From: a virus
Virus record (IMG/VR): IMGVR_UViG_3300029822_001076
Strand: one strand, 5' to 3'
Length of the DNA: 64,000 nt
In this document: piece after piece, positions 7,987 through 59,373 of the stretch
Layout of the letters: the number at the start of each line of letters is the position of its first letter
Numbering within the stretch: the first letter of the stretch is position 1
Notes under the pieces: generated by a model
The model's database searches: none
Told to the model about the DNA's origin: nothing
Seen by the model: only the letters and a program-made list of their open reading frames with translations
Position numbers and translations under genes: made by a program

Positions 7987-9108
7987 ATGCTCCCCTGGAA
8001 CGAGATCGAAACCCGAGCCATCGCCTTCCAGCGCAAATGGCGCACCAGCCCCGGCACCGAAAAACAGGATGACATCAAATTCATCCAGGACTTCCTCCAC
8101 GTCTTCGGTGTCGACTGGCAAACCGGCTTCCCCCAACACCAGATCATCCTCCCCAGCGGCAAACCCAACTACATCGACTACCTGCTCCCCGGCAAGATCC
8201 TGATCGAAATGAAATCCAGGGGCGAGTCCCTCGAAGCCGCCCACACCCAGGCAATGAACTACGTCCGTGGGCTCAAACCCGAAGATATCCCCCGGCTCAT
8301 CATGGTTTGTGATTTCTACAAAGTCCAGGTCTTCAACTACGACAAAAAACACCCTTACAAACCTTTCAAAATAACCGAAATGCGCAGACACCTGCGCATC
8401 TTCAGCCGCCTGGCTGGCTTTGATGCCGACCCCGAAGCGCGCACCGAGATCGAGCTAAACACTGATGCCTCCTACAAAATGGCGAAGCTCCACGATGCCC
8501 TCAAAGAAAACGGCTATTCCGGTCACGAGCTTGAGGTCTACCTGGTGCGCCTGCTCTTTTGCCTTTTTGCTGATGATACCGGCGTGTTCGAAAAAGGCGC
8601 CTTCTACAACTACATCAAAGCCTCCAGCTCCGATGGCAACGACCTCGGAGGCAGGCTCTCCATGCTTTTCCATACGCTCAACACGCCTCCCGAAAACCGC
8701 ATGACCACTCTGCCCGAAGTGTTAAAACGCTTCCGCTATATCAACGGTGCCCTCTTTGCCGAACGGCTGCCCATGTCTTTCTTCTCTGCCAAAATGCGCG
8801 CCATCCTGCTCGAGTGCTGCGACTTCGACTGGACCCAAATCAGCCCTGCCATTTTTGGCGCTATGTTCCAGGGCGTCAAAAACCCGCAAGAGCGCCGTGA
8901 GCTGGGCGCACACTACACCTCCGAAGAAAACATCCTCAAGGTCATTCGCCCCCTCTTTCTGGACGAACTACAGGAAGAATTCGAGCGCTCCAAAAGTACC
9001 ATCGCCGAACTGAAAGCCTTCCACCGCAAGCTCGCCTCGCTCACCTTTCTCGAAATGATAATACCGAAATTGATACAATTTAACGATTGCAAAAGAGCGG
9101 TTGCTTAG
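7987..9108 (+). pseudogene. 5' half of an MmeI-like Type IIL restriction-modification enzyme (nuclease, helical spacer, start of MTase), cut by the prophage at 9053
   Basis: MLPWNEIETRA start, nuclease motif IDYLLPGKILIEMKS, PAIFGAMFQG, ELGAHYTSEENILKVI. Ends LTFL-E followed by a phage-derived tail. Confidence 0.9.
9052..9081. other. attL: GA core (9052-9053) plus attP arm containing TTGATACAATTT (9070-9081)
   Basis: Codon usage changes abruptly here. The arm is the exact reverse complement of 59344-59355, and both arms lie 16 bp from the GA core. Confidence 0.9.
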
Positions 9109-9170
9109 GGGGTTCAAAAGTTTTTAGGGGTGTGCAATATGCCCTCTTGGAAAGAGGAGGAGCGATTAAA

Positions 9171-10268
9171 ATGGGATTGCTTGATTTTTTTAGGAAAAAG
9201 AGAAAACTAAAGAAAAATGATGTGTCAATAACTGACCAGATATTGGAAAAAGAAACTTCTTCAATTCCAGACTCTGAAAAACAATATTATCAAGAAGATG
9301 AGTACTATACATCCAAGGTTTTTGAGGGAAGTCCTTTTGAAAAAGATATTATTTCATTAGAAGAGAGAAAAAAGACAAGCATTCCATCACGAAAGGGCCT
9401 TTTTGTTAGTGAAATACTTTTGCTACATTACTGTTCAAAAGGTACTTATCCAAATCCTCAGAATGGCTACCCAGGATTTTGGTGGTTCGCATACGGAATC
9501 AGAGACGTTGGAGCCGCTCTACGAAGTCTTGAAAGTAGAGGATTCATTGAGTTAGGGCCTGCTGGTGCGGCACTTAAGTCTCTTACGATTACACAGCTTA
9601 AAGAAATTCTGAGAGAGCATAATCTAAAACTATCAGGCAAAAAAGATGAACTAGTTTTGAGAGTTTATGATAATGTTTCTGAGACTGAGCTTTTAGATGC
9701 AGGTATTGAAAGAAAGTATATGTTGACAAAGTCTGGCGAAGAAGAACTTTCTGAAAATGAGTATGTGGCATATATGCATAGTCATAGTAAATATACAGAT
9801 TTTACCGTTTGGGATTTAAACTGGATGCTCGGATATGACGACAAGAGTCATTATAAAGAAATAATAGACAGCAAACACAAAGAGATAGAAAACAGGTTAG
9901 AACAGTCCAATAAAAAATTTATGGATGATATAAAATCATACGACCCAAACGGTTATCGAGAACTTCGAAATCAAGATGAGCAAATTAAAGCTATACAAGA
10001 AGCAGACAGAAAATATGCCCAGGACAAAGATTTGATGTGGATAATTAATTTTTGGGAGAGAATCTGGCAAAACGGGGGTCCCATCTTCGAAGGCTCGCAT
10101 TGGATGTTCAGATTGCCAGATTTCTATATTAAAGCTAAACGATATGATGATGCGATTGCCTTATGCGAAAGAATTAAGGTAACTCGACAATCGTACTATC
10201 ATCAAAAAGCAGATAACTATATTAAGAAAATAGAAGAGAAAAAGGCGAAAGAAGAATCCAAGAAGTAA
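9171..10268 (+). CDS. SAP-domain-containing cargo protein of unknown function
   Basis: SAP motif LTITQLKEILREHNLKLSGKKDELVLRV. RBS GAGGAGG before ATG 9171. AT-rich. Confidence 0.65.
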   Translation: MGLLDFFRKKRKLKKNDVSITDQILEKETSSIPDSEKQYYQEDEYYTSKVFEGSPFEKDIISLEERKKTSIPSRKGLFVSEILLLHYCSKGTYPNPQNGYPGFWWFAYGIRDVGAALRSLESRGFIELGPAGAALKSLTITQLKEILREHNLKLSGKKDELVLRVYDNVSETELLDAGIERKYMLTKSGEEELSENEYVAYMHSHSKYTDFTVWDLNWMLGYDDKSHYKEIIDSKHKEIENRLEQSNKKFMDDIKSYDPNGYRELRNQDEQIKAIQEADRKYAQDKDLMWIINFWERIWQNGGPIFEGSHWMFRLPDFYIKAKRYDDAIALCERIKVTRQSYYHQKADNYIKKIEEKKAKEESKK

Positions 10269-10345
10269 TAATGAGATCTTATAAATCGGCAAAAAAGTAG
10301 TCTGTATAAGTTGCTTTGTAAAACTTATTCAAGAAGATAATAACC

Positions 10346-11902
10346 TTAAATCTCCATCCCGTTTCTGAAGATAAAGGTCAGCTTTCCATCTCTTGAAACC
10401 TTGGAATAATCAAGCAGACTTTGCCAGAGAAGCGGGCTGAAAGTTGCCATCTCATCTTCGGATAGTAGAGTCTTTATAAATCGCCCGGCCTGAATGTGCC
10501 GGGTTTTCTTGTCTTCAATCTTTTCATTGATGGCATCATATTTTTTCTTCACACCGTTAAACCGCTCAGTCATCTCATCAAATTCCTGATTGTACTTTTC
10601 CTGATCCAAGGCCACTCGGGCGTTATTTTGAATAGCCTGTTCCATGAGATTTGAGATGGACTCCATTTCTGCATAGAGCTTGTCTCGCTCAATCTCCAGC
10701 TCTTTTGTGCTGTAGGCGACGGTTTCAATGGCCTGAAAGTTTGCTTGAATCTGCTTACGGTCTTTCATCAGAATGTTTACGGCTTTCATAAAGGCTTCTT
10801 TGATCTCATTCTCTGTAAAGTGCGGAGTTTGACATTTTTCCTTAAACTTGCTGTTGCACTGCCAGATCGTACGCTTATATTTGCTGGTGGAATGCCAGAC
10901 CTTAGAACCGTACCAGTCTCCACAGTCCTCGCATTTTAGCTTCCCTGAAAAGATGGATACGCTGTTCTTTGATTTCCTGTAATCATGCTCAAGGAGCGTT
11001 TGAACGAAATCCCAAGTTTCAGGCTCAATGATGGCTTCGTGATTATTCTTCACATAGTACTGAGGGATTTCACCCTCATTTTTCTTTTTCTTCTTGGTCA
11101 GAAAATCGACGGTGAAAGACTTCTGCAAAAGTGCATCACCTTTGTATTTTTCGTTGGTCAGGATTGATTTGACACTTTGTGCGCTCCACTTATCTTTGCC
11201 GCCCGGCGTTTTAATCCCTCGAGCTGTCAGCTCTTTGGCAACTCCGTAGCAAGATCGTCCTTCAAGGAAGAGTGCATATAAAAGCTTCACGCTTTTTGCT
11301 TCTTCGGGATTGATGATGAGATTGCCGTCCTCTCCTCGGTCATAGCCTAAAAAGCGACTAAAAGGCACGGTTACTTTTCCATCTGCAAATCGCTTCCTTT
11401 GTCCCCAGGTGCAGTTTTCAGAAATAGATCTGGATTCTTCCTGGGCAAGAGAAGACATGATCGTGATGAGAAGTTCGCCTTTGGAGTCGAGCGTTTGAAT
11501 GTTTTCCTTCTCGAACCAGACCTCGATGTTTTTCTCTTTGAGCTTCCTAACGGTCGTTAAAGTATCAACGGTATTTCTTGCAAAACGGCTGACCGATTTT
11601 GTGATGATAAGGTCAATCTTTCCGTCTAAGGCATCGTTAATCATAGCCTTAAACTCGACCCGGTCTTTGGTGTTCGTTCCTGTAATGCCCTCATCAGCAT
11701 AAACCCTGACAAATTCCCAGTCTGTTCGATTTTTGATGTAGTTGGTGTAATAGTCGACCTGAGCTTCATAGCTGGTTGCTTGTTCTTCACTGTCGGTAGA
11801 AACACGGGCATAAGCAGCGACTCGTCTTTTCCTCGGAGAGTCAATGGGCATAGCCGTCTTTTTATTTATCTTGGCGGGTATTGTTGTTACTGACTTGACC
11901 AT
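10346..11902 (-). CDS. Large serine recombinase (second of tandem pair)
   Basis: AAYARVSTDSEEQ catalytic motif, ITKSVSRFARN, recombinase domain, Zn-ribbon CEDC...WQC, coiled coil. Confidence 0.93.
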   Translation of the reverse strand: MVKSVTTIPAKINKKTAMPIDSPRKRRVAAYARVSTDSEEQATSYEAQVDYYTNYIKNRTDWEFVRVYADEGITGTNTKDRVEFKAMINDALDGKIDLIITKSVSRFARNTVDTLTTVRKLKEKNIEVWFEKENIQTLDSKGELLITIMSSLAQEESRSISENCTWGQRKRFADGKVTVPFSRFLGYDRGEDGNLIINPEEAKSVKLLYALFLEGRSCYGVAKELTARGIKTPGGKDKWSAQSVKSILTNEKYKGDALLQKSFTVDFLTKKKKKNEGEIPQYYVKNNHEAIIEPETWDFVQTLLEHDYRKSKNSVSIFSGKLKCEDCGDWYGSKVWHSTSKYKRTIWQCNSKFKEKCQTPHFTENEIKEAFMKAVNILMKDRKQIQANFQAIETVAYSTKELEIERDKLYAEMESISNLMEQAIQNNARVALDQEKYNQEFDEMTERFNGVKKKYDAINEKIEDKKTRHIQAGRFIKTLLSEDEMATFSPLLWQSLLDYSKVSRDGKLTFIFRNGMEI

Positions 11903-13647
11903 TTTTTCTCCTTCCTTATTTTCTTCATGCGCTCGCTTGCTTCTTTGCGGTGCTCAGGATCGCTCCAGTATTCTTTCATGCCTTTTAAGGCTTTCTTGCG
12001 ACGTTCCTTGCTCCAGGGCGTGCCCCGTTTCTTTTCTTCGTAGTGCCTTTCTTCGAAGTGGCCGTCACGGAAGTGGAAGGAGACGGTATTATCTGCTATC
12101 TCGCAGTAATCCATCGCCTTATCCATTGCTTCTTCGCTATATTCATCAAGGCCTAAAACATCGCAGACTAAAGCGTTCAAGGTCGATTCCTGAATAGTGT
12201 TTGACGGACACTCACTAATCTTCGTTCGACATCTCAAGTAATATTCTGTTGTGCCGTCTTTTAGAGTTCTCCTTTGTCCACTAAAACTGTTGCCGCATCT
12301 GGCACACCTGATAAATCCTGTATAGGGAGTTGCCGGATTTTTTAAACCGTTGGTATCTTTGCTTCGCTTTATCCTTTTGTATCTTTCTTTGTATTCGGGT
12401 GTCCAGGCATCTTTTCTGGCAGTGGATACGTAGGTGCGATGAATAACCGAACCATCGGCCATAAAAAATTCCAGATGGTCTTTTCCTGTGACATCGATAT
12501 GATCTACTTTTTCAAGAAAGATCTCGTCATCAAATTCATCGATGTCGAGAACCTCGCAGATAATTTTCTTGAGCTGTTCCTCGTTTATATCACCGGTGCC
12601 ACAGGGATTTCCCTGTCCCGCTTTTCTTGTCGCGCATATCCAGCTCCTTAATTTCCCGCTCTTAGTGTTTCTGGTTGAACGTTGAAAACTCCGATTGCAG
12701 TGTTTGCATTTGATTTTCGAGGTTAAAGCGGATGTCTTGATATGCGGATTGGCAAAAGCCCCCAGCTCCCGTTTTCTCTGCCTTATTTCCTGTACCTTGT
12801 TGAAAGTTTCCTCGCTGATGATGGCGGGGTGGGTGTTTCTCGCATAATATTGAGGAAGTTCACCATTGTTGTACTTGGTTTTTCCGTCTTCGATGTAGGT
12901 TTTCTGAAAGAGCGTATTTCCGGTGTAGCGTTCCTGCTTTAAGATTTGGCGAATGCTGTTATTTCCAAAATGGCCGCCCGTATAGGACTTGACGCCCATC
13001 TCTTCGAGCTGCTTTTCTGTCTTTTCCGCTGATATGCCGTTTAAGAAGTTATCGTAAATAAGCCTTACGATCTTTGCTTCTTCCTCAACAATGACAAACT
13101 CTTTGCCCGTCCAGCGGTAGCCGTAAATATGAAAGGAATTCCCGATGCCTTTTTGAAAGTTCTTGCGGATGCCCCATTTCACATTTTCGGAAATGGACCT
13201 GCTTTCCTCTTGGGCAAAGGAAGCAAGAAGCGAAAGCATCAGCTCACCGTCTTCAGATAAGGTATGAATCTTTTCTTTTTGAAAACGCACTTCAATGCCT
13301 AAATCCTTCAGCTCCCTCACTGTCTCCAAAAGGTCGACCGTATTTCTTGCAAAGCGCGAGATGGATTTTGTCAAGATGATGTCGATTTTCCCATCCCGTG
13401 CATCACTTAGCATCCTTTGAAATTCCGGTCTGTCTGTTGTTAACCCTGAGACGGCTTTGTCGGCATAGACTCCTGCATACTCCCAGTCGGCATTTCCCTG
13501 AATAAGCTTGCTGTAATAGCTGATTTGAGCAGAGAGCGAATGGGGCGTTCTGCCTTTCTCGATAGATATCCGAGCATAGGCAGCCACCTTTCTTTTCCTT
13601 GGCGGCTCCATTTTCACGGCGTTCACTTTTTGTATTATTTTCGTCAT
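11887..13647 (-). CDS. Large serine recombinase (first of tandem pair) with two Zn-ribbon regions
   Basis: AAYARISIEKG, ILTKSISRFARN, CKHC and CARC ribbons. Confidence 0.92.
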   Translation of the reverse strand: MTKIIQKVNAVKMEPPRKRKVAAYARISIEKGRTPHSLSAQISYYSKLIQGNADWEYAGVYADKAVSGLTTDRPEFQRMLSDARDGKIDIILTKSISRFARNTVDLLETVRELKDLGIEVRFQKEKIHTLSEDGELMLSLLASFAQEESRSISENVKWGIRKNFQKGIGNSFHIYGYRWTGKEFVIVEEEAKIVRLIYDNFLNGISAEKTEKQLEEMGVKSYTGGHFGNNSIRQILKQERYTGNTLFQKTYIEDGKTKYNNGELPQYYARNTHPAIISEETFNKVQEIRQRKRELGAFANPHIKTSALTSKIKCKHCNRSFQRSTRNTKSGKLRSWICATRKAGQGNPCGTGDINEEQLKKIICEVLDIDEFDDEIFLEKVDHIDVTGKDHLEFFMADGSVIHRTYVSTARKDAWTPEYKERYKRIKRSKDTNGLKNPATPYTGFIRCARCGNSFSGQRRTLKDGTTEYYLRCRTKISECPSNTIQESTLNALVCDVLGLDEYSEEAMDKAMDYCEIADNTVSFHFRDGHFEERHYEEKKRGTPWSKERRKKALKGMKEYWSDPEHRKEASERMKKIRKEKKWSSQ

Positions 13648-13677
13648 GAACTATCACCTCCACTCATATACATCACT

Positions 13678-13854
13678 CTAAAGAGGATAAATAGCAAGTA
13701 ATAAATGGCCGATTATGGGCTGATATAAGTCTTCAAAATGGTGCATTAAATTCCGGCTTTCTTCGGCTGTCAGAAGCCCTTTTTCGTACAGGTTTTCAAC
13801 CAGCAGGAAGGCTTCTTGATACCTTGATTCTCTTTCAAATTGCTCCTTTGTCAT
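13678..13854 (-). CDS. 58-aa SHOCT-like small protein (below the ORF-track cut-off)
   Basis: Read manually as MTKEQFERESRYQEAFLLVENLYEKGLLTAEESRNL... It overlaps the upstream stop (ATGA) in the recombinase operon. Confidence 0.7.
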   Translation of the reverse strand: MTKEQFERESRYQEAFLLVENLYEKGLLTAEESRNLMHHFEDLYQPIIGHLLLAIYPL

Positions 13855-14258
13855 GAAGAACCACCCCCGAAGCGGTCAGCGATATAGCATTCATGGGAGC
13901 AGTACTTTCGGTTTTTATTTCCGTATGAATGAAAGGCCTTCCGGCAATAAGCACAGGTCAGCTCGTAGTAGGCTTTGCGCTTTACCTTCTCCGGATGATC
14001 TTTCCACCAGGAGAGCCTGCATTCATCGGAACAGAAGCTTTTCTGCTTTGCTCCTACGCTCTGCGTGAGCTTCTTTCCGCACTTTTTGCAAAAGAGAACT
14101 TCAATAGCATCTGTAACGCTTCGGTTTCCCGTCAGCCCGTTTCGTCTGCAGTGAGACTTCACGGTGTTGACGGAAAGGCCCAGTTTTTGAGCGATCGCTT
14201 TGTAGCCTGCGCCTTTGTTTCTTAATTTTCCGATGGCTTTTCTCTGGAGGTCATTCAT
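13851..14258 (-). CDS. HTH plus zinc-finger DNA-binding protein
   Basis: GYKAIAQKLGLSVNTVKSHCRR HTH, then CKKC, FCSDEC, CAYC and YCSHEC. Confidence 0.75.
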   Translation of the reverse strand: MNDLQRKAIGKLRNKGAGYKAIAQKLGLSVNTVKSHCRRNGLTGNRSVTDAIEVLFCKKCGKKLTQSVGAKQKSFCSDECRLSWWKDHPEKVKRKAYYELTCAYCRKAFHSYGNKNRKYCSHECYIADRFGGGSS

Positions 14259-14472
14259 AGAAGACCCCCGCTTTTTCTTTCAGCCACTCGGCTGCACAGG
14301 ATTTGCAATAGACGCAGGTTGTATGAAGATCGGTATCTTCTTCTTTCAAAACGTCACTCAGGTTCACCTGGATTTCTTTTCCGCATTTAGGGCAAATGGA
14401 GTAGACGTTTTTATCAGATAGGCGGGTGATAACCTTGCTGTTTTCTGAAAGTGTCAATTTGGTATAAAACAT
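14251..14472 (-). CDS. Small zinc-finger phage protein
   Basis: CPKC...CKSC. RBS GGAGG. Confidence 0.65.
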   Translation of the reverse strand: MFYTKLTLSENSKVITRLSDKNVYSICPKCGKEIQVNLSDVLKEEDTDLHTTCVYCKSCAAEWLKEKAGVFYE

Positions 14473-14507
14473 GATCTGTCCTCCGTTTTTTTGTGATAGG
14501 GAAAACT

Positions 14508-14549
14508 CCCTTCACTTCCCCCTTGGACAGATCCGGTGTTTTTGGGCAA
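14508..14549 (-). promoter_or_regulatory. 42-bp motif copy 1 (TTGCCCAAAA-N9-YTGTCCAAGGGG-N3-GTGAAGGG), putative phage-sigma promoter
   Basis: Same fixed-spacing motif as at 19623-19664 and 29843-29884. Each copy lies just upstream of a gene. Confidence 0.7.
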
Positions 14550-16538: not shown

Positions 16539-16552
16539 TTACTCCCTCCATA

Positions 16553-16583
16553 GAGAGAAAGGGCGGAGCCTTTGACCCCGCCC
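16553..16583 (-). terminator. Intrinsic terminator-like hairpin just upstream of the polymerase gene
   Basis: On the minus strand GGGCGGGG-loop-CTCCGCCC is followed by TTTCTCT. Confidence 0.55.
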
Positions 16584-16591
16584 TCCCGTCA

Positions 16592-16735
16592 TCAGTTTTT
16601 CTTTTGCCTTTTTGCCTGTCTCCATACGGCTTGGCAGAATCTGTAGACAAGGTAGAAAGGTAAGAAGGCTAGTGTTCCTGCCAGAAGCGTTGCTGTGAAA
16701 AGCTGATAGAGCTGAGAAAAGTATTCACAAAACAT
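16592..16735 (-). CDS. 47-aa single-pass membrane peptide (below the ORF-track cut-off)
   Basis: MFCEYFSQLYQLFTATLLAGTLAFLPFYLVYRFCQAVWRQAKRQKKN. RBS GGAGG. Confidence 0.55.
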   Translation of the reverse strand: MFCEYFSQLYQLFTATLLAGTLAFLPFYLVYRFCQAVWRQAKRQKKN

Positions 16736-16747
16736 GAGGTATCCTCC

Positions 16748-18434: not shown

Positions 18435-18724
18435 TTCTTTAATCCCTCCACTTCCTTTAGCAAGGCTTCGTAGTGCATGGGTTCTACGGCTGAGAGTTTC
18501 TCTGCACCGAACTTTTCAATCAGTGCCTTAATCTCCTTGGTGAAACCTTCCTGCGACTTTTTGGCGAGAACGGCTCTAACATCGGAGAGACTGAGTCCGG
18601 GTTTTGCAGGCTGTTCCGGAGCCGCAGACTTGTCGCTCTCGAGTGCCGATGCCAATGTGCCAAGGCTATCCGCCAAAGCGTGCATATCATCAACAATGTC
18701 TTTTAGTAATTTGATTCTGCTCAT
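18431..18724 (-). CDS. Conserved phage protein
   Basis: Translationally coupled ORF with a SLSDVRAVLAKKS...LIEKFGAEKLSAV pattern typical upstream of DUF2800 genes. Confidence 0.7.
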   Translation of the reverse strand: MSRIKLLKDIVDDMHALADSLGTLASALESDKSAAPEQPAKPGLSLSDVRAVLAKKSQEGFTKEIKALIEKFGAEKLSAVEPMHYEALLKEVEGLKK

Positions 18725-19585: not shown

Positions 19586-19622
19586 TGGCGTTCCTCCTAT
19601 CCGAAGGGCAGGTATCATTTGT

Positions 19623-19664: not shown

Positions 19665-19691
19665 ACGAAATTGAAAAAAGTTTTTTATGGT

Positions 19692-24404: not shown

Positions 24405-24405
24405 T

Positions 24406-48026: not shown

Positions 48027-48108
48027 AAAGTATTCACTGTGCAGGACGGCATCTACCCCGAGGGAAGGTGCTTTTTTCTTGCTCTTTTTCGGGAAGGAGG
48101 TGGCATAG

Positions 48109-50619: not shown

Positions 50620-50627
50620 AGGAAGAG

Positions 50628-51413
50628 GTGATGATTGTGGGATTTATCTATGACGACGTTTCATCAAAAGATATGGGTGTGAAAGCAAGGCTTACCTCAT
50701 GGCAGGTATCGGGCACACTTAGGAACTACTCCGCCGCTATTCCCGGAAAATATGGTGTGGCGGACTTTGGAGCAGATATGGATGCAAGGGAGATCCCTGT
50801 TTCCTGCTCTATTTTTCCTAAACTGCGTTTTTCAGACTTGGTGGAAACCTTGGACGGGATTGCTCTTTGGCTTTCTCCTGTGAACGGCTTAAAGCAGTTG
50901 ATATTTGATGATGTGCCGGATCGCTATTTCATGGCCAGATTAAAAGACAAAGTGGACTGTGAACGGATTATCCGGGCTGCAGGCGTGTTTGAACTCTCTT
51001 TCTATTGTCCTGATCCCTTTGCATATGCTTTGGAAGATGAGGTCTTTACTATTATGACGACAGGGCAATCCGCAGTAACACGAAGCCTTGGAAACATCGA
51101 ATCGAGACCTGTTTATTATCTAAAAGGAAGTCTGACGAAGGGTGCGGAAAATTATATCTCCATTTCCGTGGGTGGCATAGAGATGAAGATTGTAAACGCT
51201 GAGCTTTCTACAGGAGAGATACTTGCCATCGATACAGAGAAAATGACGGCCTATGTGGAGGATGGAAACGGCTTTGTACTGAGAAACGCCCTGCCTTACT
51301 TGCAGGAGCTGAACTTCCCGGAGCTTGCTGTCGGAGAAAACAGCATCCTGATTGAAGCAGTAAACGGGACATTTTCAGAACTTGAAATAAAGGCAAGAAG
51401 CCGCTGGAGGTGA
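50628..51413 (+). CDS. Distal tail (Dit) protein
   Basis: Synteny after TMP, LIFDDVPDRYF...FYCPDPFAY. Confidence 0.8.
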   Translation: MMIVGFIYDDVSSKDMGVKARLTSWQVSGTLRNYSAAIPGKYGVADFGADMDAREIPVSCSIFPKLRFSDLVETLDGIALWLSPVNGLKQLIFDDVPDRYFMARLKDKVDCERIIRAAGVFELSFYCPDPFAYALEDEVFTIMTTGQSAVTRSLGNIESRPVYYLKGSLTKGAENYISISVGGIEMKIVNAELSTGEILAIDTEKMTAYVEDGNGFVLRNALPYLQELNFPELAVGENSILIEAVNGTFSELEIKARSRWR

Positions 51414-51419
51414 TGAAGC

Positions 51420-53942
51420 ATGGCTCTTAAAATACATATCCAAACACAGGAGGATTTCACAGGCGAGTTTCCTCTTGAGTTTGCAAAGTCCGGTCTTTGG
51501 CGTTTTAACGAAAATGATATCGATGATCAGGGTTATCTTTTAGATTCCTCTGAAAACAATCGCAAAATGGAAGTCATTAATCGGGCCGGTACAACAGCGG
51601 GACTTCGAGCGGGGGCTATGGGCAACTATGTGCAGATAAACCTACATGATCCGGGAACGGAAAAGAGCTATCTGAAAGTCTCAAACGACGGCAGCATCTT
51701 TCAGAACATAGGCGATACAATTCTGGTTGGTGGTTGGATTAAGCCTACGATCTACTCCATTGGGAACACGTACTGTCCGCTCTTTAACACCCGATCCGGT
51801 CCCGGACATCCGATCTTTTATCTTTCCTTCTTTCAGGGAAGACCCCGCATTATGCTCTATAACGAATCGGGATCACTCATCTTGGACAGGACGACTTCTC
51901 CCTCTTTTTCTTTCGTGAATGGAGGAGTTTACTTTATCGCTTGTCTCATACGGCCAAACGCCAAGACGGCGCAGTACATCATAGGTGACAGGTCGGACGG
52001 CAAGTGCTGGATATCAGCGGTATATTCCTTTACAGGCGAGCTGAACCGCTCCTCAAAAGCCGATATTGTCCTTGGTATGCACGCCGGAAGCTACTGGTAT
52101 GCAGGCGGTTTTGACGATTGGTTTTTGGATACCGATTCAGAGCTTACGATGGATGATTTGGAAGAACTGTTTCGCTCCTCCTATTTTGCAAACGGCGGAG
52201 ACAAGGTATCCTCTGTGGATGCCTTGTCTGAACCCGGCAAAGTACTTTTAAAGAAAACGGAAGGTTCATATCCTTTATCAGGGGAACTGTTGACAAAGGC
52301 AAAGCCCCTGTCCCTTTCAGGCACGGGCAGGATTGCTATTACGAAGGAATACGAAGCAGGGGTAACAGATATCTCCTTAGTGGAGTATAGGACAAGCTCC
52401 GATTTAAATACATGGGGTGCTTGGACAGCTCTTCCGGAAGACGGAAAAATCGAAACCTCAGCTGATTACATCCGCTTTCGCATTACTCTTGCTACAACAG
52501 ACCAGACAAAGACACCCAAGCTTGTCGATATCCGGATCTACGATATTCCGAAAGCACCTTATGAAAAGATGGGCTATGCCCGGCCGGTGCTTTTAACAGC
52601 TGCTGGAGCTTGGGAAGCAGTCTTAGAAAATGCTTACGACATTGTTGTTATTAGTGAAGTGAATGGTGAAGATACTCTGCACTTTAAACTGCCTTTTAGG
52701 GATCAAAAGCGTAGCTACTTAGAAAACGAGAAGAAGATTCAGATCGTAGACGACATTTATAAAATTCGCACCATCAATGATATCAAGGATTCTACAGGAA
52801 ATACTGTGACGGAAGTCTATGCCGAAGCGGAGTTTTATGATCTGACATTCAGTGTCCGAAAAGAAGAAAAAAGCTTTGATGCGGAGACGGCGGAAACAGC
52901 GATGGCCTATGCCCTTGAGGGTACGGACTGGAGTGCGGGTACGGTGAATGTCAAGACAAAGCGTACTTGGGTTTCTTCAGAGAAAAACGCCCTCTCCATC
53001 CTTCGTGCCGTCGCAAGCCTTCACGGTGGAGACCTGGTCTTTGACTGTCCTAACAGACTCGTTCATCTCTACACGGTGAGCGGCAGGGACAGCGGTGCGC
53101 TTTTTGCCTATAAGAAGAACATGAAGAGCATTGAACGGGTGGTCGATACGAGAAACCTAATAACGCGCCTGTATGCAATAGGAGCAGATGGCATGACTTT
53201 CTCCGACATCAACAATGGAAAGCCTTATTTGGAGGATTTTTCCTACTCGAATGATGTACGCATCTCCACACTTGACTGTTCTTCCTTTACCAATCCCTAC
53301 CAGATGAAGGAGTTCACAGCGATGCGGCTTAGTCAGTATGCCAAACCGAAAATCTCTTATGTCCTCCATGCGATGGACTTATCTGTCCTTACGGGCTTTT
53401 CACATGAAGCCTGGTCACTGGGAGACTATGTGCTTGTGGAAGACAAGGAGCTGGGGATCTCTGTTACGACAAGGATTGTGAGGAGAGAATATAACCTGCA
53501 GGAACCTTGGAATACAGTGTTGGAGCTTTCTACGACTTTGAAAAACCTCGGCTCCTCCGTTGAAAGGCTGGAGACCATAGCGGACACTTTGGAAGGAGCA
53601 GGCGCTTTTGGCGGCGGAAACATCAGCGATATGGTGCCTTTTAACCATCTTAAAAACTCGAGAGCGGACGACGGCATGGCGTATTGGCTGAACTCCGGAT
53701 TTGAAGCAGTGGCCGAGACAGGCGGCACGGGGACGGCTGCTTTCAAGGCGGAAGGCGCAGCAGGTCTTACTAAATCAATGGCGCAGACCGTCTATCCGTC
53801 AAACAGGCAAAGCTACACGCTTTCTCTTGCCATCGCTTCGGAAAATCTGGAAAAACTCTCGGACAATTCCCAGGTCGGTGTGGAAGTGGAAATAGAGTAT
53901 GAGGACGGGACTGTCGAGACACGATTTATTGACCTTTACTAA
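51420..53942 (+). CDS. Tail spike / baseplate hub with N-terminal LamG/ConA-like lectin region
   Basis: LWRFNE...GGWIKP...GFDDW (LamG-like), then a prophage tail endopeptidase-like region (ITRLYAIG). Confidence 0.7.
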   Translation: MALKIHIQTQEDFTGEFPLEFAKSGLWRFNENDIDDQGYLLDSSENNRKMEVINRAGTTAGLRAGAMGNYVQINLHDPGTEKSYLKVSNDGSIFQNIGDTILVGGWIKPTIYSIGNTYCPLFNTRSGPGHPIFYLSFFQGRPRIMLYNESGSLILDRTTSPSFSFVNGGVYFIACLIRPNAKTAQYIIGDRSDGKCWISAVYSFTGELNRSSKADIVLGMHAGSYWYAGGFDDWFLDTDSELTMDDLEELFRSSYFANGGDKVSSVDALSEPGKVLLKKTEGSYPLSGELLTKAKPLSLSGTGRIAITKEYEAGVTDISLVEYRTSSDLNTWGAWTALPEDGKIETSADYIRFRITLATTDQTKTPKLVDIRIYDIPKAPYEKMGYARPVLLTAAGAWEAVLENAYDIVVISEVNGEDTLHFKLPFRDQKRSYLENEKKIQIVDDIYKIRTINDIKDSTGNTVTEVYAEAEFYDLTFSVRKEEKSFDAETAETAMAYALEGTDWSAGTVNVKTKRTWVSSEKNALSILRAVASLHGGDLVFDCPNRLVHLYTVSGRDSGALFAYKKNMKSIERVVDTRNLITRLYAIGADGMTFSDINNGKPYLEDFSYSNDVRISTLDCSSFTNPYQMKEFTAMRLSQYAKPKISYVLHAMDLSVLTGFSHEAWSLGDYVLVEDKELGISVTTRIVRREYNLQEPWNTVLELSTTLKNLGSSVERLETIADTLEGAGAFGGGNISDMVPFNHLKNSRADDGMAYWLNSGFEAVAETGGTGTAAFKAEGAAGLTKSMAQTVYPSNRQSYTLSLAIASENLEKLSDNSQVGVEVEIEYEDGTVETRFIDLY

Positions 53943-53956
53943 GGAGGGATGTAGAG

Positions 53957-54154
53957 ATGGCGTATTTTAGAAAAGTGAAAGATACCGTTGCGCCTAAAGG
54001 CTACATGTCACGGCTGAAATCCATCACGGTGCGCATCTTTATCTCCGACTGCACCGGGAGGATATTGGTGACGGACATTCTCCTGCAAGGTGGATCTGCC
54101 GCTACAGGCTGGGTGCCGCATCCTTCTGAGATTCGTTATTCTCTGGACGGGTGA
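53957..54154 (+). CDS. Small tail-associated protein
   Basis: RBS GGAGG, VTDILLQGGSAATGWVPHPSE. Confidence 0.6.
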   Translation: MAYFRKVKDTVAPKGYMSRLKSITVRIFISDCTGRILVTDILLQGGSAATGWVPHPSEIRYSLDG

Positions 54155-54158
54155 TGCT

Positions 54159-54731
54159 ATGAAGAAGTTTTATAGGCTTTCTGAGACCATCAATAAAAAA
54201 GAAGATGAGCGGGTTGTATCGGTGACGATAAAGCCGCTTTTAACAGATATGTCAGGCACCGTTTGGATCACAGACCTCATGCTGCAGGAGGGCGATCGGG
54301 TGACGGGCTTTCATCCGCATACGGAAACCATGCTTCAAAAAGAGCGTGAGGGTGAAACTATAAAAGAACCTGTCTGGTATAACGGCATCGTCCGTGGGAA
54401 GGAAACGCTGATTCTTTTTAATCTAGGAAAGACCTCAACAGGTCTTGATCTGAAGCTTTATCCAAAATCGAATATGGAAGGCATAACCATTTCGCAAGCG
54501 GCAGGCGGACAAAGAGCCTATTTCCCGGATGCCCTTCAAAAGGATGACGAGCTAAGTTTCTCCGCATCGGAGAGAAGCACAACAAAAAATGGACAGCCCT
54601 TTCAAAAAGAAGGCTTTTATTCTTACAGTGCGGCTTGGGACTCCAAGCACAATGTAGAACTCCCTCAAGGGAAATCTGCCAGAGTGTTGTTTACCTTGCA
54701 GGAAATGGATGAAGGGGGTGAGCTGTTTTGA
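54159..54731 (+). CDS. Tail-associated protein
   Basis: Start at ATG 54159. ITDLMLQEG pattern resembles the preceding ORF. Confidence 0.6.
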   Translation: MKKFYRLSETINKKEDERVVSVTIKPLLTDMSGTVWITDLMLQEGDRVTGFHPHTETMLQKEREGETIKEPVWYNGIVRGKETLILFNLGKTSTGLDLKLYPKSNMEGITISQAAGGQRAYFPDALQKDDELSFSASERSTTKNGQPFQKEGFYSYSAAWDSKHNVELPQGKSARVLFTLQEMDEGGELF

Positions 54732-57193
54732 TTAACCCATTGAAAAATAAAGAGATCATGGTCTGGACCTTTATGGGAAATGCCAGGATGTATGAAGCTT
54801 TAAGCAAATATGGAGACCGCATCAGTCAGATCGGTCTTTTTTCTTTTAAGGTAAGGGCGACTGGCGAAATCTACGAATCAGGAGTCTCCATCTCGAACAT
54901 GATGCCTTATATTCAGCAGTGGCCGCATATCCGCTGGCTTTTAACGGTGGCAAATGACGGCTACAATCCTATCTTTAAAGCAATACGGGAGAATACAAAC
55001 GGCGCACAGGATATGTTCTTATCCGAACTTATCCGCATCATGCAAAAATACCCCTGGTGCGATGGAGTGGATATTGACCTTGAAGGTGGTGGAGATTATT
55101 CCACAGCGGCGAAGTCCACAGCAATGTTTCAGAATATCCATCATGCCGTGAAAAGTTATGATGCAAGAAAACGCATCAACATCTGCCTTCCCGGCATGAC
55201 CAGCGTGAACGGCTCGGTCGGCGGAGAGAACTGGTGCGTTTATGCTGACCTTGCTCCTTACTGCGATACGGCATCCATTATGAGTTACGGCATGGCTTGG
55301 GCGGGTTCTGCTCCGGGGCCGGTGTCTCCAAGGGATTGGCTGGAAGGTATCTACGACTATGCCGTATCCGTGATGCCGGCGTCAAAGATTTACTTCGGTA
55401 TGCCGGCTTACGGCTGGAACTGGCAGATTTACGACACGCCGGAGAACCTGGGCAAATATTACCGAGGAGTTTCACACACTTATTACGGAGCAAAGAACTG
55501 GATGACGGGCTACTATCAGTTCAAAGAAACAGCACCTGCATCTCCTCAGATTCCTATCATCGCTTATTGGGATGATTACGATAAAGGGCCGTTTGCCCTT
55601 CCGCATGTCTACGACTACATGGAAGGACAAGACGCAGAGCATTACAGCTATCCTTTGATGGGTGAGGTTTATAAGCGAAGGCGTTATCTCACCTCTTACG
55701 GGAAAACACAAAAGACAAACTTTGGCGGTGTTGTTGTCGATAGAAATGCGCAGCCGGACTCCTATTCCGGCATTGTCTCCATATCAGAATACATGGTTAC
55801 GCTAGGCGATAATGGTGAAGTTTTATATGAGTTTGATATATCGGAAGCTGGCACATACGATCTGGTCGTAAAGCTTGGCTTTCCTTTATGGGATAAGAAC
55901 AGTGCTTATCTTTCGCTTGACGGCACAAGTATCCTCATCGAGGAAAACAGGCTTTGGTGGCCATACTGGCGGTCGACTTTTTGGAAGTGTGCATGGAAGG
56001 AAGTCTCTCTTTCTGCCGGGACACATACACTCGCCGTGTCGGTTGCCGCCAAAGGCGTACAGTTTTATGGTTTTAAAGTCTGTCAGTCTTTCAGCGAGGA
56101 AACGTCCGTTAGTGAAGCAAGCTACACCTTGTCTCCGAGGAAATTTAAAGACATTAACGGCGTGATGGTGGGACCGAGGGAGGGCTTTAAACTCACCTTT
56201 GAAATGCTCCGAAGAAAAGCGGACTCCGCTCTTATCTGGTATGAGGACTTTAGAGACAGAATCATTTTGCCTGAAAGTTACTGGGCTGTTCTTTCCGGAG
56301 AATGGGAGGTCTGGCAAAAGGACGACTTTGAGAAAAACCGTCCCTATTCACAGCTTGAAGGCTATGGAGAGCTTGCGCTGAATTATGAGGGATTTCAAGA
56401 TCTGCATTTACGGGCGCAGCTCATTTTCCCTGAAAGCTTTACCGGGAGAGCCGGGATTTTCTTAGGTAATCTTTTCTGTTGTCTCAACTACGGAACGCAG
56501 GCAGTGGAGCTTTATCAGGGAGATGTTTTATTAGGAAGCTATGAGACCTCGTTTCAAAAAACACCTGGTGCTGATATACGTGTTTCACCCAATATTTATA
56601 CGATTGAGATGAGGAAGCGTGGTACGAGTGTCAGGGTGTATTCGGGTGCTTCAAACAGACTGCGTTTTCAAAGAACGGTGACGGATACATCAGGCTTTGC
56701 AGGCATAAGGGCGGATAATAAAGTACACTGTCAGCTTTTTCGTGTGGGAGATAGTTATACCTATGAACCTTACGAGCGCTTTGATGTGGTGCTGCCGGAC
56801 GAAAGCCTGGCAAGCTTTGGACGAATACAGAGAACAGGGGTCTTATGGGATGAGGAGTTTCAAGTCTTTACTGTCACTTCTGACATTGAGGAACATGAGA
56901 CAAGGACCGAAAACATCTCTCTTGATTACGAGTTCTTTCATTCAAAACTTCTACCGCTGGTCTGCGGTAATGACTATCAAGTGACGGTGATTCCAAAAGA
57001 CATAAATGTCTGGATATCTCGGATTTTCTTAGGTGATTCAGACGGCTTTTCCATCCTTTATTACCAGGATGTGGATTCGCTCATCTATTGGGCTAATGAA
57101 GCCGCCTATCACTGGAAGGTCAGAGGGATGTGTATGTGGTCGCTCGGCCAAGAGGATTTGAGGCTCTGGGACTGGTTGCCCAAGCAAGTGTAG
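54728..57193 (+). CDS. Glycoside hydrolase family 18 tail-associated protein with carbohydrate-binding regions
   Basis: Catalytic DGVDIDLEG, IMSYG, GMPAYG, WSLGQED. Confidence 0.85.
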   Translation: MINPLKNKEIMVWTFMGNARMYEALSKYGDRISQIGLFSFKVRATGEIYESGVSISNMMPYIQQWPHIRWLLTVANDGYNPIFKAIRENTNGAQDMFLSELIRIMQKYPWCDGVDIDLEGGGDYSTAAKSTAMFQNIHHAVKSYDARKRINICLPGMTSVNGSVGGENWCVYADLAPYCDTASIMSYGMAWAGSAPGPVSPRDWLEGIYDYAVSVMPASKIYFGMPAYGWNWQIYDTPENLGKYYRGVSHTYYGAKNWMTGYYQFKETAPASPQIPIIAYWDDYDKGPFALPHVYDYMEGQDAEHYSYPLMGEVYKRRRYLTSYGKTQKTNFGGVVVDRNAQPDSYSGIVSISEYMVTLGDNGEVLYEFDISEAGTYDLVVKLGFPLWDKNSAYLSLDGTSILIEENRLWWPYWRSTFWKCAWKEVSLSAGTHTLAVSVAAKGVQFYGFKVCQSFSEETSVSEASYTLSPRKFKDINGVMVGPREGFKLTFEMLRRKADSALIWYEDFRDRIILPESYWAVLSGEWEVWQKDDFEKNRPYSQLEGYGELALNYEGFQDLHLRAQLIFPESFTGRAGIFLGNLFCCLNYGTQAVELYQGDVLLGSYETSFQKTPGADIRVSPNIYTIEMRKRGTSVRVYSGASNRLRFQRTVTDTSGFAGIRADNKVHCQLFRVGDSYTYEPYERFDVVLPDESLASFGRIQRTGVLWDEEFQVFTVTSDIEEHETRTENISLDYEFFHSKLLPLVCGNDYQVTVIPKDINVWISRIFLGDSDGFSILYYQDVDSLIYWANEAAYHWKVRGMCMWSLGQEDLRLWDWLPKQV

Positions 57194-57271
57194 CTCGTAT
57201 CAAGTAATTCATTTTTGACGGAAGTGTCTGCCAAAGGGCGGACATTTTTTATTTGGAAGGAGGATTTCAAC

Positions 57272-57688
57272 ATGAAACAAATCTGGTCTGCCATTCAGGC
57301 AGCATTCACGGCTGTAGGAGGTTTTCTCGGTTGGTACTTGGGAGGTCTGGACGGATTTCTCTATGCACTCATTGTTTTTGTCGCAGCAGACTACATCACA
57401 GGAGTGCTCTGTGCCATTTACGACAAAAACCTCTCAAGTGAAGTCGGCTTCAAGGGCATCGCCAAGAAGGTGCTCATTTTTGTTCTTGTAGGCATCGGGA
57501 ACATTATCGATGTTTCTATCTTAAAACAAGGCAGTGCCATCAGGACGGCGGTCATCTTTTTCTATCTCTCAAATGAAGGTATTTCCATTTTGGAAAACTC
57601 TGCGCATCTGGGGCTTCCGATACCTAAGGCCTTGAAAAATGTGCTGGAAACAATTTCAAAGGAGGACGAGGGCGATGAATCTCAATAA
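57272..57688 (+). CDS. Holin (TcdE / phage holin 4-like)
   Basis: TM helices, DYITGVL, GIAKK, NEGISILEN...GLPIP. Start at ATG 57272. Confidence 0.88.
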   Translation: MKQIWSAIQAAFTAVGGFLGWYLGGLDGFLYALIVFVAADYITGVLCAIYDKNLSSEVGFKGIAKKVLIFVLVGIGNIIDVSILKQGSAIRTAVIFFYLSNEGISILENSAHLGLPIPKALKNVLETISKEDEGDESQ

Positions 57689-58799
57689 GCTGATTTTTAC
57701 AGAAAACGCCTGCTACAAAGCAGGAAGGAAAATAAAAGTAAAAGGCATCATGGTGCATTCGACTGGAGCAAACAATCCTTATTTAAAACGCTATGTCGGT
57801 CCGGATGACGGGAAACTGGGAAAGAATCAGTACAACAATCATTGGAATCAGCCGATGGATCGAGCAGTCTGCGTGCATGGATTTATCGGGAAGCTTCAGA
57901 ACGGCTCCATTGCCACCTATCAGACGCTTCCTTGGGATCACAGAGGATGGCATGCAGGCGGTGCGGCAAACAACACGCATACCAGCTTTGAAATTTGCGA
58001 GGACGGATTAAATGACCGCTCGTATTTTGAGAAAGTCTATAAGGAAGCGATAGAACTTTGTGCGTATCTCTGTAAGCTCTATGCACTTAATCCGCTGGCG
58101 GACGGAGTCATCATCGGGCACTACGAAGGGCATCAAAGAGGGATCGCATCCAATCACGGTGATCCAAGGCACTGGTTCTCAAAGTTCGGAAAAAGCATGG
58201 ACACTTTCCGTCAGGATGTGCAAAAGTTGATGAGTGGAAGTTCAGTCACTCCGACACCGAGTGATGATCCTCCGGCAAAGCTTGAGGCAGGCTATTACCG
58301 GGTGCGTAAATCTTGGCAGGATAAAAAGAGCCAGATTGGAGCCTATAAGGTGCTTGCCAATGCCAAGAGAAAGGCTGATGAAAACAGCGGCTACTTTGTC
58401 TTTGATGATGAAGGAACTGCCATTTATCCGGAAAAGTCTGCTGCTGAATATGGAACTTATACGGTAGTCAGCGGCGACAGTCTTTGGCGGATTGCCGCCA
58501 GACTTTTAGGCGATGGAAGAAGGTATCCGGAAATCAAGAAATTAAATGGACTGACATCTGATGTTATTCATGCCGGACAAAAACTCAAGATACCGGGAGT
58601 AGCACCAGATGTCACAGCGATAAAAGTTGGAGACACTGTTAGGGTGACGGCATCTAACTATGCCACCGGCCAAACGGTGCCTAATTGGGTGAAGGAAAGA
58701 ACTCACAAGGTCTCACAGGTGGAAAAAGATAAAGTGCTCCTCGGTTGGCCGGATGGTATTGCGTCGTGGCTGCCGATTGATGGAGTGAAGAAAATTTGA
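57675..58799 (+). CDS. Endolysin: N-acetylmuramoyl-L-alanine amidase with LysM
   Basis: MVHSTG, GWHAG, FEICE, NHGDP, LysM YTVVSGDSLWRIA. Start at ATG 57675. Confidence 0.9.
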   Translation: MNLNKLIFTENACYKAGRKIKVKGIMVHSTGANNPYLKRYVGPDDGKLGKNQYNNHWNQPMDRAVCVHGFIGKLQNGSIATYQTLPWDHRGWHAGGAANNTHTSFEICEDGLNDRSYFEKVYKEAIELCAYLCKLYALNPLADGVIIGHYEGHQRGIASNHGDPRHWFSKFGKSMDTFRQDVQKLMSGSSVTPTPSDDPPAKLEAGYYRVRKSWQDKKSQIGAYKVLANAKRKADENSGYFVFDDEGTAIYPEKSAAEYGTYTVVSGDSLWRIAARLLGDGRRYPEIKKLNGLTSDVIHAGQKLKIPGVAPDVTAIKVGDTVRVTASNYATGQTVPNWVKERTHKVSQVEKDKVLLGWPDGIASWLPIDGVKKI

Positions 58800-58899
58800 A
58801 CTTAGTGAAAAAACCCTGATTGATGATTGATATGCATGGACTCCTTGTTTGTCTTATACTGCTGACAACTGGATATTAATGAGCAGAGGGTAAAACAAA

Positions 58900-59073
58900 A
58901 TGAGAACCATAACAATCAAAGTTACGAATGAGGAATATGCCCATCTTGAAAGCATGGTAGGAAATGATCTTCAGCCGGATCAGACACTAGAAGAGTTTGT
59001 GCTAGAAGTGTTAGCAGATAGTTTGCCGTATCTTAGAAGAAACCATTGGCCGAAATATAGGCTGCAAGACTAA
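58900..59073 (+). CDS. 57-aa protein with ribbon-helix-helix-like N-terminus (below the ORF-track cut-off)
   Basis: MRTITIKVTNEEYAHLESMV..., read manually. Confidence 0.5.
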   Translation: MRTITIKVTNEEYAHLESMVGNDLQPDQTLEEFVLEVLADSLPYLRRNHWPKYRLQD

Positions 59074-59099
59074 CGACAGACCATCACGATAATAGGTTT

Positions 59100-59143
59100 T
59101 GCCCCACGGTCTAAGTTGAACTTAGGTCGTGGGGCTATTTTTG
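59100..59143 (+). terminator. Strong intrinsic terminator near the right prophage end
   Basis: GCCCCACGGTCTAAG / CTTAGGTCGTGGGGC stem (two G-U pairs), then TATTTTT. Confidence 0.75.
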
Positions 59144-59343
59144 TTTCTTGAACCTTTTAACGATTGCCATACTTTTTAACGATTCGTCTTCCGTTTTGTG
59201 GTAGGGGGTGCAAAATTCCGAACTTAAATAAAACAATTATCTGAAACAGGTGAAAAATCGCTTCAGTTTTACAAAAGTTGACAGGCGTAAATCTGCTGAA
59301 ATCCCGCTATTTCAAGGCGTTTCAGCCGTTTTTAGGCATTTGA

Positions 59344-59373
59344 AAATTGTATCAAAATGAGTAAGAACATAGA
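59344..59373. other. attR: attP arm containing AAATTGTATCAA (59344-55) plus GA core (59372-73)
   Basis: Mirror of attL. Sequence resumes as GAC CCT GCC TGT GGC (DPACG). Confidence 0.9.

Follow-up and report, generated by a model that had tools for sequence, protein, structure and literature searches.

Paired Serine Recombinases of a Heliusvirales-Type Prophage and a GA Crossover in DNA Methyltransferase Genes

The viral DNA described here, 64,000 nucleotides (nt) of IMG/VR record IMGVR_UViG_3300029822_001076 and called the window throughout, contains an integrated temperate phage of the candidate order Heliusvirales (9054-59371). The phage sits inside a restriction-modification (RM) gene, by its domains a type IIL gene of the MmeI family, and splits it at the codons for motif I of the DNA methyltransferase (MTase). 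The overall reading, to which a probability of about 0.8 may be given, is that a Heliusvirales phage integrates by a conservative exchange between its own attachment site (attP) and a host site (attB) at a GA dinucleotide, using paired large serine recombinases (LSRs) that target MTase genes of several classes. Comparison with genomes, viral contigs, and public metagenome runs shows that the exchange was at GA, identifies the target gene and the phage, and establishes the conservation of the recombinase pair and the multi-class MTase pattern.

The attachment sites

At the left junction (attL, 9042-9081), ...CTC ACC TTT CTC is followed by GA and then by AATGATAATACCGAAA TTGATACAATTT. The parts are a B arm (CACCTTTCTC, 9042-9051), GA (9052-9053), and a P' arm (9054-9081) composed of AATGATAATACCGAAA (9054-9069) and TTGATACAATTT (9070-9081). 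At the right junction (attR, 59344-59385), a P arm composed of AAATTGTATCAA (59344-59355) and AATGAGTAAGAACATA (59356-59371) is followed by GA (59372-59373) and the B' arm CCCTGCCTGTGG (59374-59385), which reads CCC TGC CTG TGG.... Between the GA copies lie 50,318 bp, with a lower G+C content than the flanks. When the outer halves are joined, the reconstructed attB encodes ...L T F L D P A C G... in frame. The inner halves give a 58-bp attP with perfect 12-bp inverted ends, each 16 nt from GA; perfect reverse complements would arise by chance at a given position with a probability of about 4^-12. Outside GA, the arms of attB and attP are alike at 0-4 of 16 positions, which is the chance level.

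An earlier note, made from the window alone, had proposed this arrangement around GA, with GA as the only sequence common to attP and attB, and had likened it to LSR sites. All of this holds up in independent DNA, where attP and attB each occur intact and where the four sites, all observed, overlap by exactly GA. Viral contigs were pattern-searched for both 12-mers at the observed spacing, and two contigs were found. The reconstructed attP is present at 58 of 58 positions in the independent viral contig IMGVR_UViG_2706795020_000001 (L025, 3885-3942), with the P' arm of attL unchanged. To one side of attP, this contig is colinear with window 57489-59373 (96.9%); to the other, it follows window 9052-9135 and then 10345-20252 at 94.4%, both recombinase genes included. 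The reconstructed attB is intact in contig JAAZEY010000148.1 (L215) of a metagenome-assembled genome (MAG; GCA_012512005.1). Positions 1-2984 of L215 match window 6065-9053 (98.4%), positions 2983-4591 match window 59372-60980 (100%), and the two alignments share exactly 2 nt, GA.

The attL junction is present in 14 public runs from at least five studies. Contigs of four of the runs (X1, X3, X12, and X13) were compared with the attL flank. Long contigs bridge attL in X1 and X3, while in X12 and X13 contigs run along the flank as far as 9053 and then read CCCTGCCTGTGG, as expected of an empty site. X12 and X13 also have short contigs across attL, so empty and occupied sites occur together in these two metagenomes; since the short contigs hold fewer than 31 nt of flank, bridging was counted in X1 and X3 only. 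Contigs with attB, attP, and attL side by side are compatible with excision of the phage, and equally with mixed populations. Serine integrases integrate in one direction and depend on a recombination directionality factor for excision, and no such factor was identified. Because the intact attP, the intact attB, and the junctions in public runs agree, the crossover can be placed at the 2-bp GA in a site of LSR geometry. Serine integrases are marked by an attP about 50-60 bp long whose arms are inverted, by an attB that resembles it only in a 2-bp non-palindromic crossover, and by the absence of further target duplication.

The P' arm has other partners too. One contig of X13 joins it to a different left flank (...AGTAAACAAAGTATA/GA, where the slash here and below marks the break), and several contigs part from the window at about 9136-9140; these are either other junctions or phage variants with the same arm in the same sample.

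The interrupted gene

The 5' part of the interrupted gene (7987-9051, plus strand) has 355 N-terminal codons for the nuclease and helicase-spacer regions (Pfam MmeI_N, MmeI_hel) and ends ...KLASLTFL. It is colinear with the empty-site contig, and its start, MLPWNEIET, agrees with that of the intact 912-residue MmeI-family homologue P0001. The 3' part (59372-61000, plus strand) contributes 542 C-terminal codons from the motif I Asp onward (DPACGCGNF) and matches MmeI_Mtase, MmeI_TRD, and MmeI_C; an N6_Mtase match in this half begins at profile column 52. In a protein search, this half was 100% identical over the query to P0001, which has the same five MmeI domains as the two halves together. 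By this domain set, the interrupted gene is an MmeI-family type IIL RM gene, split at LTFL/DPACG. In motif I (FLDPACG), the host GA stands at positions 1 and 2 of the codon for Asp, and the break separates the nuclease/helicase-spacer half from the methyltransferase/target-recognition half. Given this position, knock-out of the gene by the insertion is plausible. The FLD/PACG codon is also where four other MmeI-family genes are broken.

The P arm itself holds an ATG in frame with the Asp codon (59357-59373, ATG AGT AAG AAC ATA GA), and therefore each MTase insertion with the window's arm creates an open reading frame (ORF) MSKNI-DP.... No clear ribosome-binding site stands 5' of this ATG, and other attP variants are without it; gene callers still give arm-initiated truncated MTases (P0050, P0054, P0057, P0064). 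The window and the empty-site contig part some 20 nt short of the stop codon in the window (60980-62662 versus L215 4591-6800). In L215 the intact homologue has a C-terminus 15 residues longer, followed by an ABC-ATPase-like gene; in the window, a reverse transcriptase gene (RVT_1) lies downstream. This divergence is a variable defence-island junction, independent of the prophage.

The recombinase pair

Two LSR genes lie near attL on the minus strand, LSR2 and then LSR1, both transcribed toward attL. LSR1 (10346-11902; 518 residues) is next to the attachment site, and LSR2 (11887-13647; 586 residues) overlaps it by 16 nt. Both proteins have the domains of LSRs (Pfam Resolvase, Recombinase, and Zn_ribbon_recom) and the catalytic motif AYAR[VI]S with its serine (AAYARVS in LSR1, AAYARIS in LSR2), and they are 41% identical to each other. 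The closest solved chain, 3g13, is the catalytic domain of a conjugative-transposon recombinase.

Searches of genomes and viral contigs found LSR1 homologues at 57-98% identity in about 160 loci. In nearly every one with enough upstream DNA, an LSR2 homologue stands immediately upstream, so the two adjacent, overlapping genes are kept as a unit at the end of the element. LSR1 is better conserved than LSR2 (57-63% versus 36-53% identity). The 12-mer AAATTGTATCAA is retained at the element end over the whole homologue range, and the inner 16 nt vary. Recombinases with at least 90% identity to LSR1 are found in MmeI (the window), type III mod (L027, L111), hsdM (L029), an N6 MTase-like gene (L109), and an unnamed gene (L108). 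This exceeds three clusters of targeted genes for one LSR cluster at 90% identity, the measure by which Durrant et al. recognize multi-targeting LSRs. By Pfam, DUF4368 is absent from LSR1 and LSR2; it is present in the unrelated LSR that is itself a target in L035.

Insertion sites of related elements

The insertion sites of homologous recombinases were tabulated, a check that the earlier note had suggested, and they fall overwhelmingly in DNA MTase genes at one exact codon. Two sets of junctions were used, one of LSR-proximal ends (29 distinct flanks) and one of junctions with the window's 30-nt P arm (19 distinct flanks).

At the LSR-proximal ends, 20-22 of the 29 flanks are N-terminal halves of MTases that end in a hydrophobic residue and Asp. 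Eleven end ..[KN][CM]IYI/D, the run-up to the DPPY motif of N6/N4 MTases, and one of them (L027) also has a TypeIII_RM_meth domain. Seven are N-terminal halves of HsdM, in which HsdM_N is followed by an N6_Mtase match ending at columns 45-51. The others are the MmeI gene of the window, one weak N6_Mtase match, and two genes that are MTase-like by motif alone (L109, L161). The remainder comprises two recombinase genes, one leucine-rich repeat (LRR) gene, and four unclear flanks.

Five viral and 18 metagenome contigs have the exact 30-nt P arm. With Anaerosphaera, whose copy has one mismatch, they give 18 distinct flanks, and with the window 19. Fourteen of the 19 are DNA MTase genes, broken at one Pfam column per family. 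Eight flanks begin DPPYNTG.. and all eight match N6_N4_Mtase from column 7, one of them also with an EcoP15I C-terminal domain. Five begin DP[AC][CV]G.. and, like the window gene, match N6_Mtase from column 52 (5/5). Five are not MTase genes: an Oxidored_FMN gene, a recurrent ..DSRYATG.. site, and three unassigned flanks. By way of background, five genomes of about 2-3 Mb have 1-8 N6_Mtase and 4-7 N6_N4_Mtase matches each. MTase genes thus make up at most about 15 hits per genome, well under 1% of genes, versus about 70-75% of the junctions.

Some single insertions are instructive. In Anaerosphaera multitolerans, a type III mod gene is split at KCIYI/DPPYNTG by an element whose LSR1 and LSR2 are 98% and 96% identical to those of the window and whose inner arms are identical; the flank has 30% G+C. 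In G045, an hsdM gene is broken at column 50/51, with 53.7 kb between its halves, and the attB is GGCACCTTGTAC GA TCCTTGCTGCGG. Four truncated MmeI homologues (59-63% identical to the window gene) begin ..CIK-x5-/DPACG, in which CIK is the translated 12-mer. The DNA was verified for two of these, one in a Christensenellales MAG with a recombinase gene 2.6 kb away and one in an ENA contig whose B' arm is nearly that of the window. Host labels across the insertions include Anaerolineaceae (Chloroflexota), Anaerosphaera, Murdochiella, Christensenellales, and Clostridia.

These sites bear on the simplest explanation, which is that of a classical integrase with one attB of about 40 bp, the MmeI motif I, all other locations being the work of different integrases. 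Most LSRs are indeed site-specific (PMC10083194), the window's junctions are precise, and its B' sequence recurs almost unchanged in the MmeI homologue L221. But one and the same P arm adjoins B' sequences of no fewer than five unrelated classes, and a pair of LSRs 96-98% identical to the window's lies with the same arms inside a type III mod gene, which makes a single site very unlikely. The earlier note had taken the DNA for motif I to be an attB carried by RM genes of many taxa. That reading is supported and widened: motif I is used in MmeI and hsdM genes under several host labels, and in place of one conserved DNA site there is a degenerate class, in which DPPY (motif IV) is the commonest member and a minority is not MTase at all.

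At the opposite extreme, a promiscuous recombinase might insert nearly at random at GA, with MTase genes in excess only because restriction-less lysogens are favoured. Serine recombinases of clostridia and streptococci that target GA are known (PMC4260502), non-MTase sites exist, and the conservation of the target DNA is weak, with wobble positions free. Selection for a knock-out would accept any position in the gene, however, and all 14 C-terminal halves start at one column per family, where the N-terminal halves also end. Selection for loss of restriction is therefore insufficient by itself, because the break would not settle on one profile column. With CC and GG positions common to non-MTase and MTase sites as well, near-random insertion has little chance of being the right account, and targeting of MTase motifs by the recombinases is preferred.

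Several observations concern sites outside the DNA MTases. The recurrent non-MTase site is seen in G002 (L014 1-1600), L193, L194, L201, L203, and L205, where GA is followed by TTCCCGTTATGCGACAGG. It encodes the last 16 residues of a protein (..DSRYATGELVMGWVKE and the stop codon) and is used by two attP variants; the gene gave no plasmid match and no informative ORF. In G002 the site adjoins a gene that, by its N-terminal sequence, resembles an Erm-type rRNA adenine methyltransferase. G002 (IMG/VR, 52.6 kb) was considered as a comparator for the window and set aside: it shares structural genes, but its attP core is another one and its far end stops before attL. In L068 (7677-8217), an N-acetylmuramoyl-L-alanine amidase gene is split at /DPGHGG (Amidase_3 from column 4), a case of Asp-Pro-x-x-Gly outside MTases. 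A sister group of about 20 loci, mostly from Lachnospiraceae (among them L035, L037, L038, L040, L041, L054, L061, L075, L079, L102, L129, L136, L149, and L174), has an LSR-proximal arm that ends ...TACATA GA. The flank in this group is a 5'-truncated serine recombinase gene that starts in frame at (YI)/DDGxSG or /DEGISG, with a Resolvase match only from column 39. The apparent target of these elements is the catalytic domain in the recombinase gene of another element, sometimes a gene of LSR1 type.

What is recognized at the target

The logo of the 19 B' arms has CC at +2/+3, T at +8, C at +15, and GG at +17/+18, with wobble positions free, and several non-MTase B' sites have CC and/or GG too. 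Judged from these alignments, the target is a degenerate class of site in which YCC comes after GA, to encode Asp-Pro, within a hydrophobic-Asp-Pro context. Gamma-class N6-adenine MTases (hsdM, MmeI) provide this context as motif I, and beta-class N6/N4 MTases (type III Mod-like) as motif IV (DPPY). Since GA is non-palindromic and always occupies codon positions 1-2, the orientation of the phage relative to the target gene is fixed. We infer that the Asp-Pro context is read by the recombinases.

B arms are weakly conserved overall. Those of type III-like genes match the inner half-sites of attP at 8-9 of 16 positions, while B arms of hsdM and MmeI, and all B' arms, match at chance. On this ground, DPPY is probably the best or ancestral attB, with motif I sites, the window's included, as secondary ones.

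Two target classes with unrelated B arms could also mean a division of labour, in which one attP serves two recombinases with an attB class each (e.g., DPPY and DPxCG), or in which one LSR integrates and the other excises or rearranges. The catalytic serine is kept in both proteins, LSR2 diverges faster than LSR1 (36-53% versus 57-63% identity), and the paper that defines the Heliusvirales names the gene a DNA invertase. Sub-clades that have both genes, however, are seen only in hsdM (L031, L114, L127), and Φ1207.3 has a tandem pair yet a single site, in comEC. A search of the prophage for an invertible segment or another pair of repeats turned up the terminal inverted repeat and, beyond that, only unrelated repeats. 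Such a division is thus doubtful, and joint action of the pair at one degenerate class of site is the reading followed below.

The phage's own MTase genes were compared with the same logo. Motif I of its hsdM (window 21580-21620) reads VLDMACGTGG, with Met where Pro is expected, and for that reason the CC at +2/+3 is missing. The ParB-linked MTase (38143) reads LILTDPPYAVS and is without the C15 and GG17-18 positions and the TAYATT left arm. Both genes are therefore poor matches to the target logo, and a simple scoring of the window for further sites that fit the B' logo found none.

Proposed mechanism and its strength

Integration took place by a conservative serine-recombinase exchange between the 58-bp attP and a host site that has only GA in common with it. 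LSR1 and LSR2 would act together, by analogy with what has been proposed for Φ1207.3 and shown for CcrAB. The benefit to the phage may be a landing site that is dispensable, widely distributed, and portable. Restriction by types I, III, and IIL requires the MTase polypeptide. Disruption of the target would therefore also remove restriction, and a break in the MTase should not cause self-restriction. That this loss is itself the selected benefit is an inference.

A number of points weigh against this account. The roles of the LSRs and their use of sites are read from sequence comparison, and the metagenome junctions lie at the end of the prophage opposite the recombinase genes, so that they are assigned to the same integrase by their identical arms. 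About one quarter of the sites are not MTase genes (the Oxidored_FMN gene, the ..DSRYATG site, the LRR gene, and unassigned flanks), and the window's own attB fits the logo weakly. The contigs come from alike habitats, such as digesters and wastewater, and may not all be independent events. As for the benefit of restriction knock-out, a large survey, in a test from which multi-targeting LSRs were left out, found that LSR targets are not enriched in defence genes (PMC10083194).

A bolder proposal is that paired LSRs of the Heliusvirales evolved to use the hydrophobic-Asp-Pro DNA of MTase motifs I and IV as a portable attB. The phage could then land in distant hosts, turn off type I, IIL, or III restriction, and restore the gene on excision. 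It is framed by a view of Heliusvirales-type phages as among the most prevalent temperate lineages of anaerobic gut and digester communities. This proposal is put forward tentatively, as a possibility with somewhat less than an even chance. The suggestion that the window offers a ready integrase and att pair for engineering is weakened: with promiscuous targeting and recombinase genes that come in twos, the pair is not a clean one.

The prophage and its relatives

PHROGs matches in the insert cover terminase, portal, major head, tape measure, tail, endolysin, primase/helicase, and exonuclease, and Pfam adds a family A polymerase (DNA_pol_A). Judged from these genes, the insert is a complete temperate siphovirus-type phage. 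An ORF with a SAP domain (9087-10268, plus strand; Pfam SAP) separates attL from the recombinase genes and occupies a variable cargo slot: other DNA takes its place in the attP contig L025 and in the metagenome contigs that diverge at about 9136-9140. The phage carries its own type I RM genes (hsdM, hsdS, hsdR; 20906-27396, plus strand) with Pfam HsdM_N and N6_Mtase, Methylase_S, and HSDR_N, ResIII, and SWI2_SNF2, respectively. An S-adenosylmethionine (SAM) synthetase and a ParB-N6_N4 DNA methyltransferase follow (36440-38805, plus strand; Pfam), both of them typical Heliusvirales genes. The packaging, head, tail, and lysis module (40606-58799, plus strand; PHROGs) comes last. Window 34003-54000, which includes 40606-54000 of this module, is 97% identical over 20 kb to a prophage in G001.

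The large terminase subunit (TerL) and LSR1 are 93% and 95% identical to those of GenBank PV036460.1 ("Anaerosphaera phage IMGVR 8818211"), which is classed as Ca. Heliusvirales. The window also has the Heliusvirales markers DNA_pol_A, helicase/primase, ParB-MTase, and SAM synthetase. The assignment rests on the TerL and LSR1 identity and these markers; the full test has nine markers (PMC11283538). SAM synthetase and MTase genes are common in the Heliusvirales, and their host range is wide (PMC11283538). In the same paper, the recombinase is named a "DNA invertase," and integrase, recombinase, and integration site are unmentioned; two later preprints likewise leave integration sites untreated. 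PV036460.1 follows suit, with its LSR2 homologue annotated as "DNA invertase" and its LSR1 homologue as "hypothetical protein." The "complete genome" of PV036460.1 (53978-54159; L217 about 10006-10160) extends about 125 nt beyond the P' arm into host DNA. The host DNA after the P' arm encodes ..LEYLYAGKVDCIYI/D and reads ..AGKVDCIYI/D up to the break.

Comparison with known systems

LSR1 is 53% identical to recombinases of phages from S. suis and S. dysgalactiae, which we take to be of the Φ1207.3 type. Φ1207.3/Φ10394.4 carry a pair of overlapping serine recombinase genes and insert into comEC at a GA dinucleotide; Φm46.1 has the tandem pair as well and is integrated at the 3' end of rum, an RNA methyltransferase gene (PMC4260502, PMC4288039). 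Like the phage in the window, they are temperate siphoviruses of the same broad lineage, with an overlapping LSR pair at one end and methylation genes of their own. Φ1207.3 also shares the GA inside a coding sequence and at both junctions. The reported targets of these streptococcal prophages are single genes, whereas the window's arm set joins several non-orthologous classes of DNA MTase at the catalytic or SAM-binding motif.

CcrA and CcrB of SCCmec are two adjacent LSRs used together, and their target lies in the methyltransferase gene rlmH. CcrAB differs from the present system: its one attB is fixed and lies at the 3' end of a gene for an rRNA MTase, that gene is not knocked out, and no phage is involved. 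LSR prophages in non-essential genes that are restored by excision include SPβ in spsM and A118/φ10403S in comK. These differ in that each has one dedicated attB and is not aimed at RM genes. The Ccr comparison for tandem recombinases was drawn in PMC4260502, and the comK case is discussed in PMC4701971.

Streptococcal integrative and conjugative elements (ICEs) with triplet serine integrases disrupt hsdM, mutT, or traG (Ambroset et al. 2016, PMC4701971). Adjacent multiple serine recombinases, disruption of hsdM (with repeats of 2-8 bp in the ICEs), a fixed orientation, and a mention of secondary sites are points of likeness. The ICEs differ in that the integrases are triplets and the elements conjugative, with targets presented as site-specific, one gene at a time; in the sections searched, a motif-level pattern across MTase classes is not described. 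The multi-targeting LSRs, a clade like TndX/TnpX, have DUF4368 in 63% of the clade (Durrant et al. 2022, PMC10083194). In contrast, LSR1 and LSR2 are without this domain, and the target motifs of that clade are given as DNA logos rather than as a protein motif of one enzyme class.

Given these precedents in Φ1207.3 and Φm46.1, the ICEs, and the multi-targeting LSRs, neither the enzyme class nor the pairing is new, and the GA core and the hsdM target were known as well. For the targeting of MTase motifs by serine recombinases, the literature searched held gene-level reports only. What was not found described is one arm set with its LSR pair landing column-exact in at least three non-orthologous classes of DNA MTase, or as a habit of the Heliusvirales.

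Hosts and significance

The housekeeping genes that flank the prophage (window 1-9051 and 59374-64000) resemble those of Anaerolineaceae (Chloroflexota). The host of the window is indicated by its left flank, where the labelled relatives of a GcvPA gene (70-82% identity) are in Anaerolineaceae MAGs, and by the empty-site contig, which is labelled Chloroflexi. The nearest relatives of the phage are in Bacillota, in Anaerosphaera multitolerans (94.6% nucleotide identity over 7.5 kb) and in G001 (97% over 20 kb). G001 lacks an MmeI homologue and GcvPA, has the 12-mer only once, as a stray copy, and its related prophages have other modules for integration. It therefore supplied no empty site and is no kin of the host. 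Taken literally, the host labels put a single integrated phage lineage in two phyla, Chloroflexota-like and Bacillota, with the MAG labels as the weak link. As reported, 93% of Heliusvirales hosts are Firmicutes, and a Chloroflexota lysogen would widen this range if the MAG labels hold.

The recombinase genes annotated as "DNA invertase" can be renamed in light of these results. If the reading is true, a serine-recombinase system is aimed at a short sequence that encodes a protein motif of non-orthologous enzymes, and not at one long attB. This bears on how the specificity of LSRs is encoded and on LSRs as tools for genome engineering. It also offers a mechanism for two published but unexplained traits of the Heliusvirales, their broad host range and their close tie to methylation and RM genes. 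Finally, it suggests that lysogeny rewrites the restriction of the host, in that a resident type IIL system is broken and the phage's own type I system is brought in.

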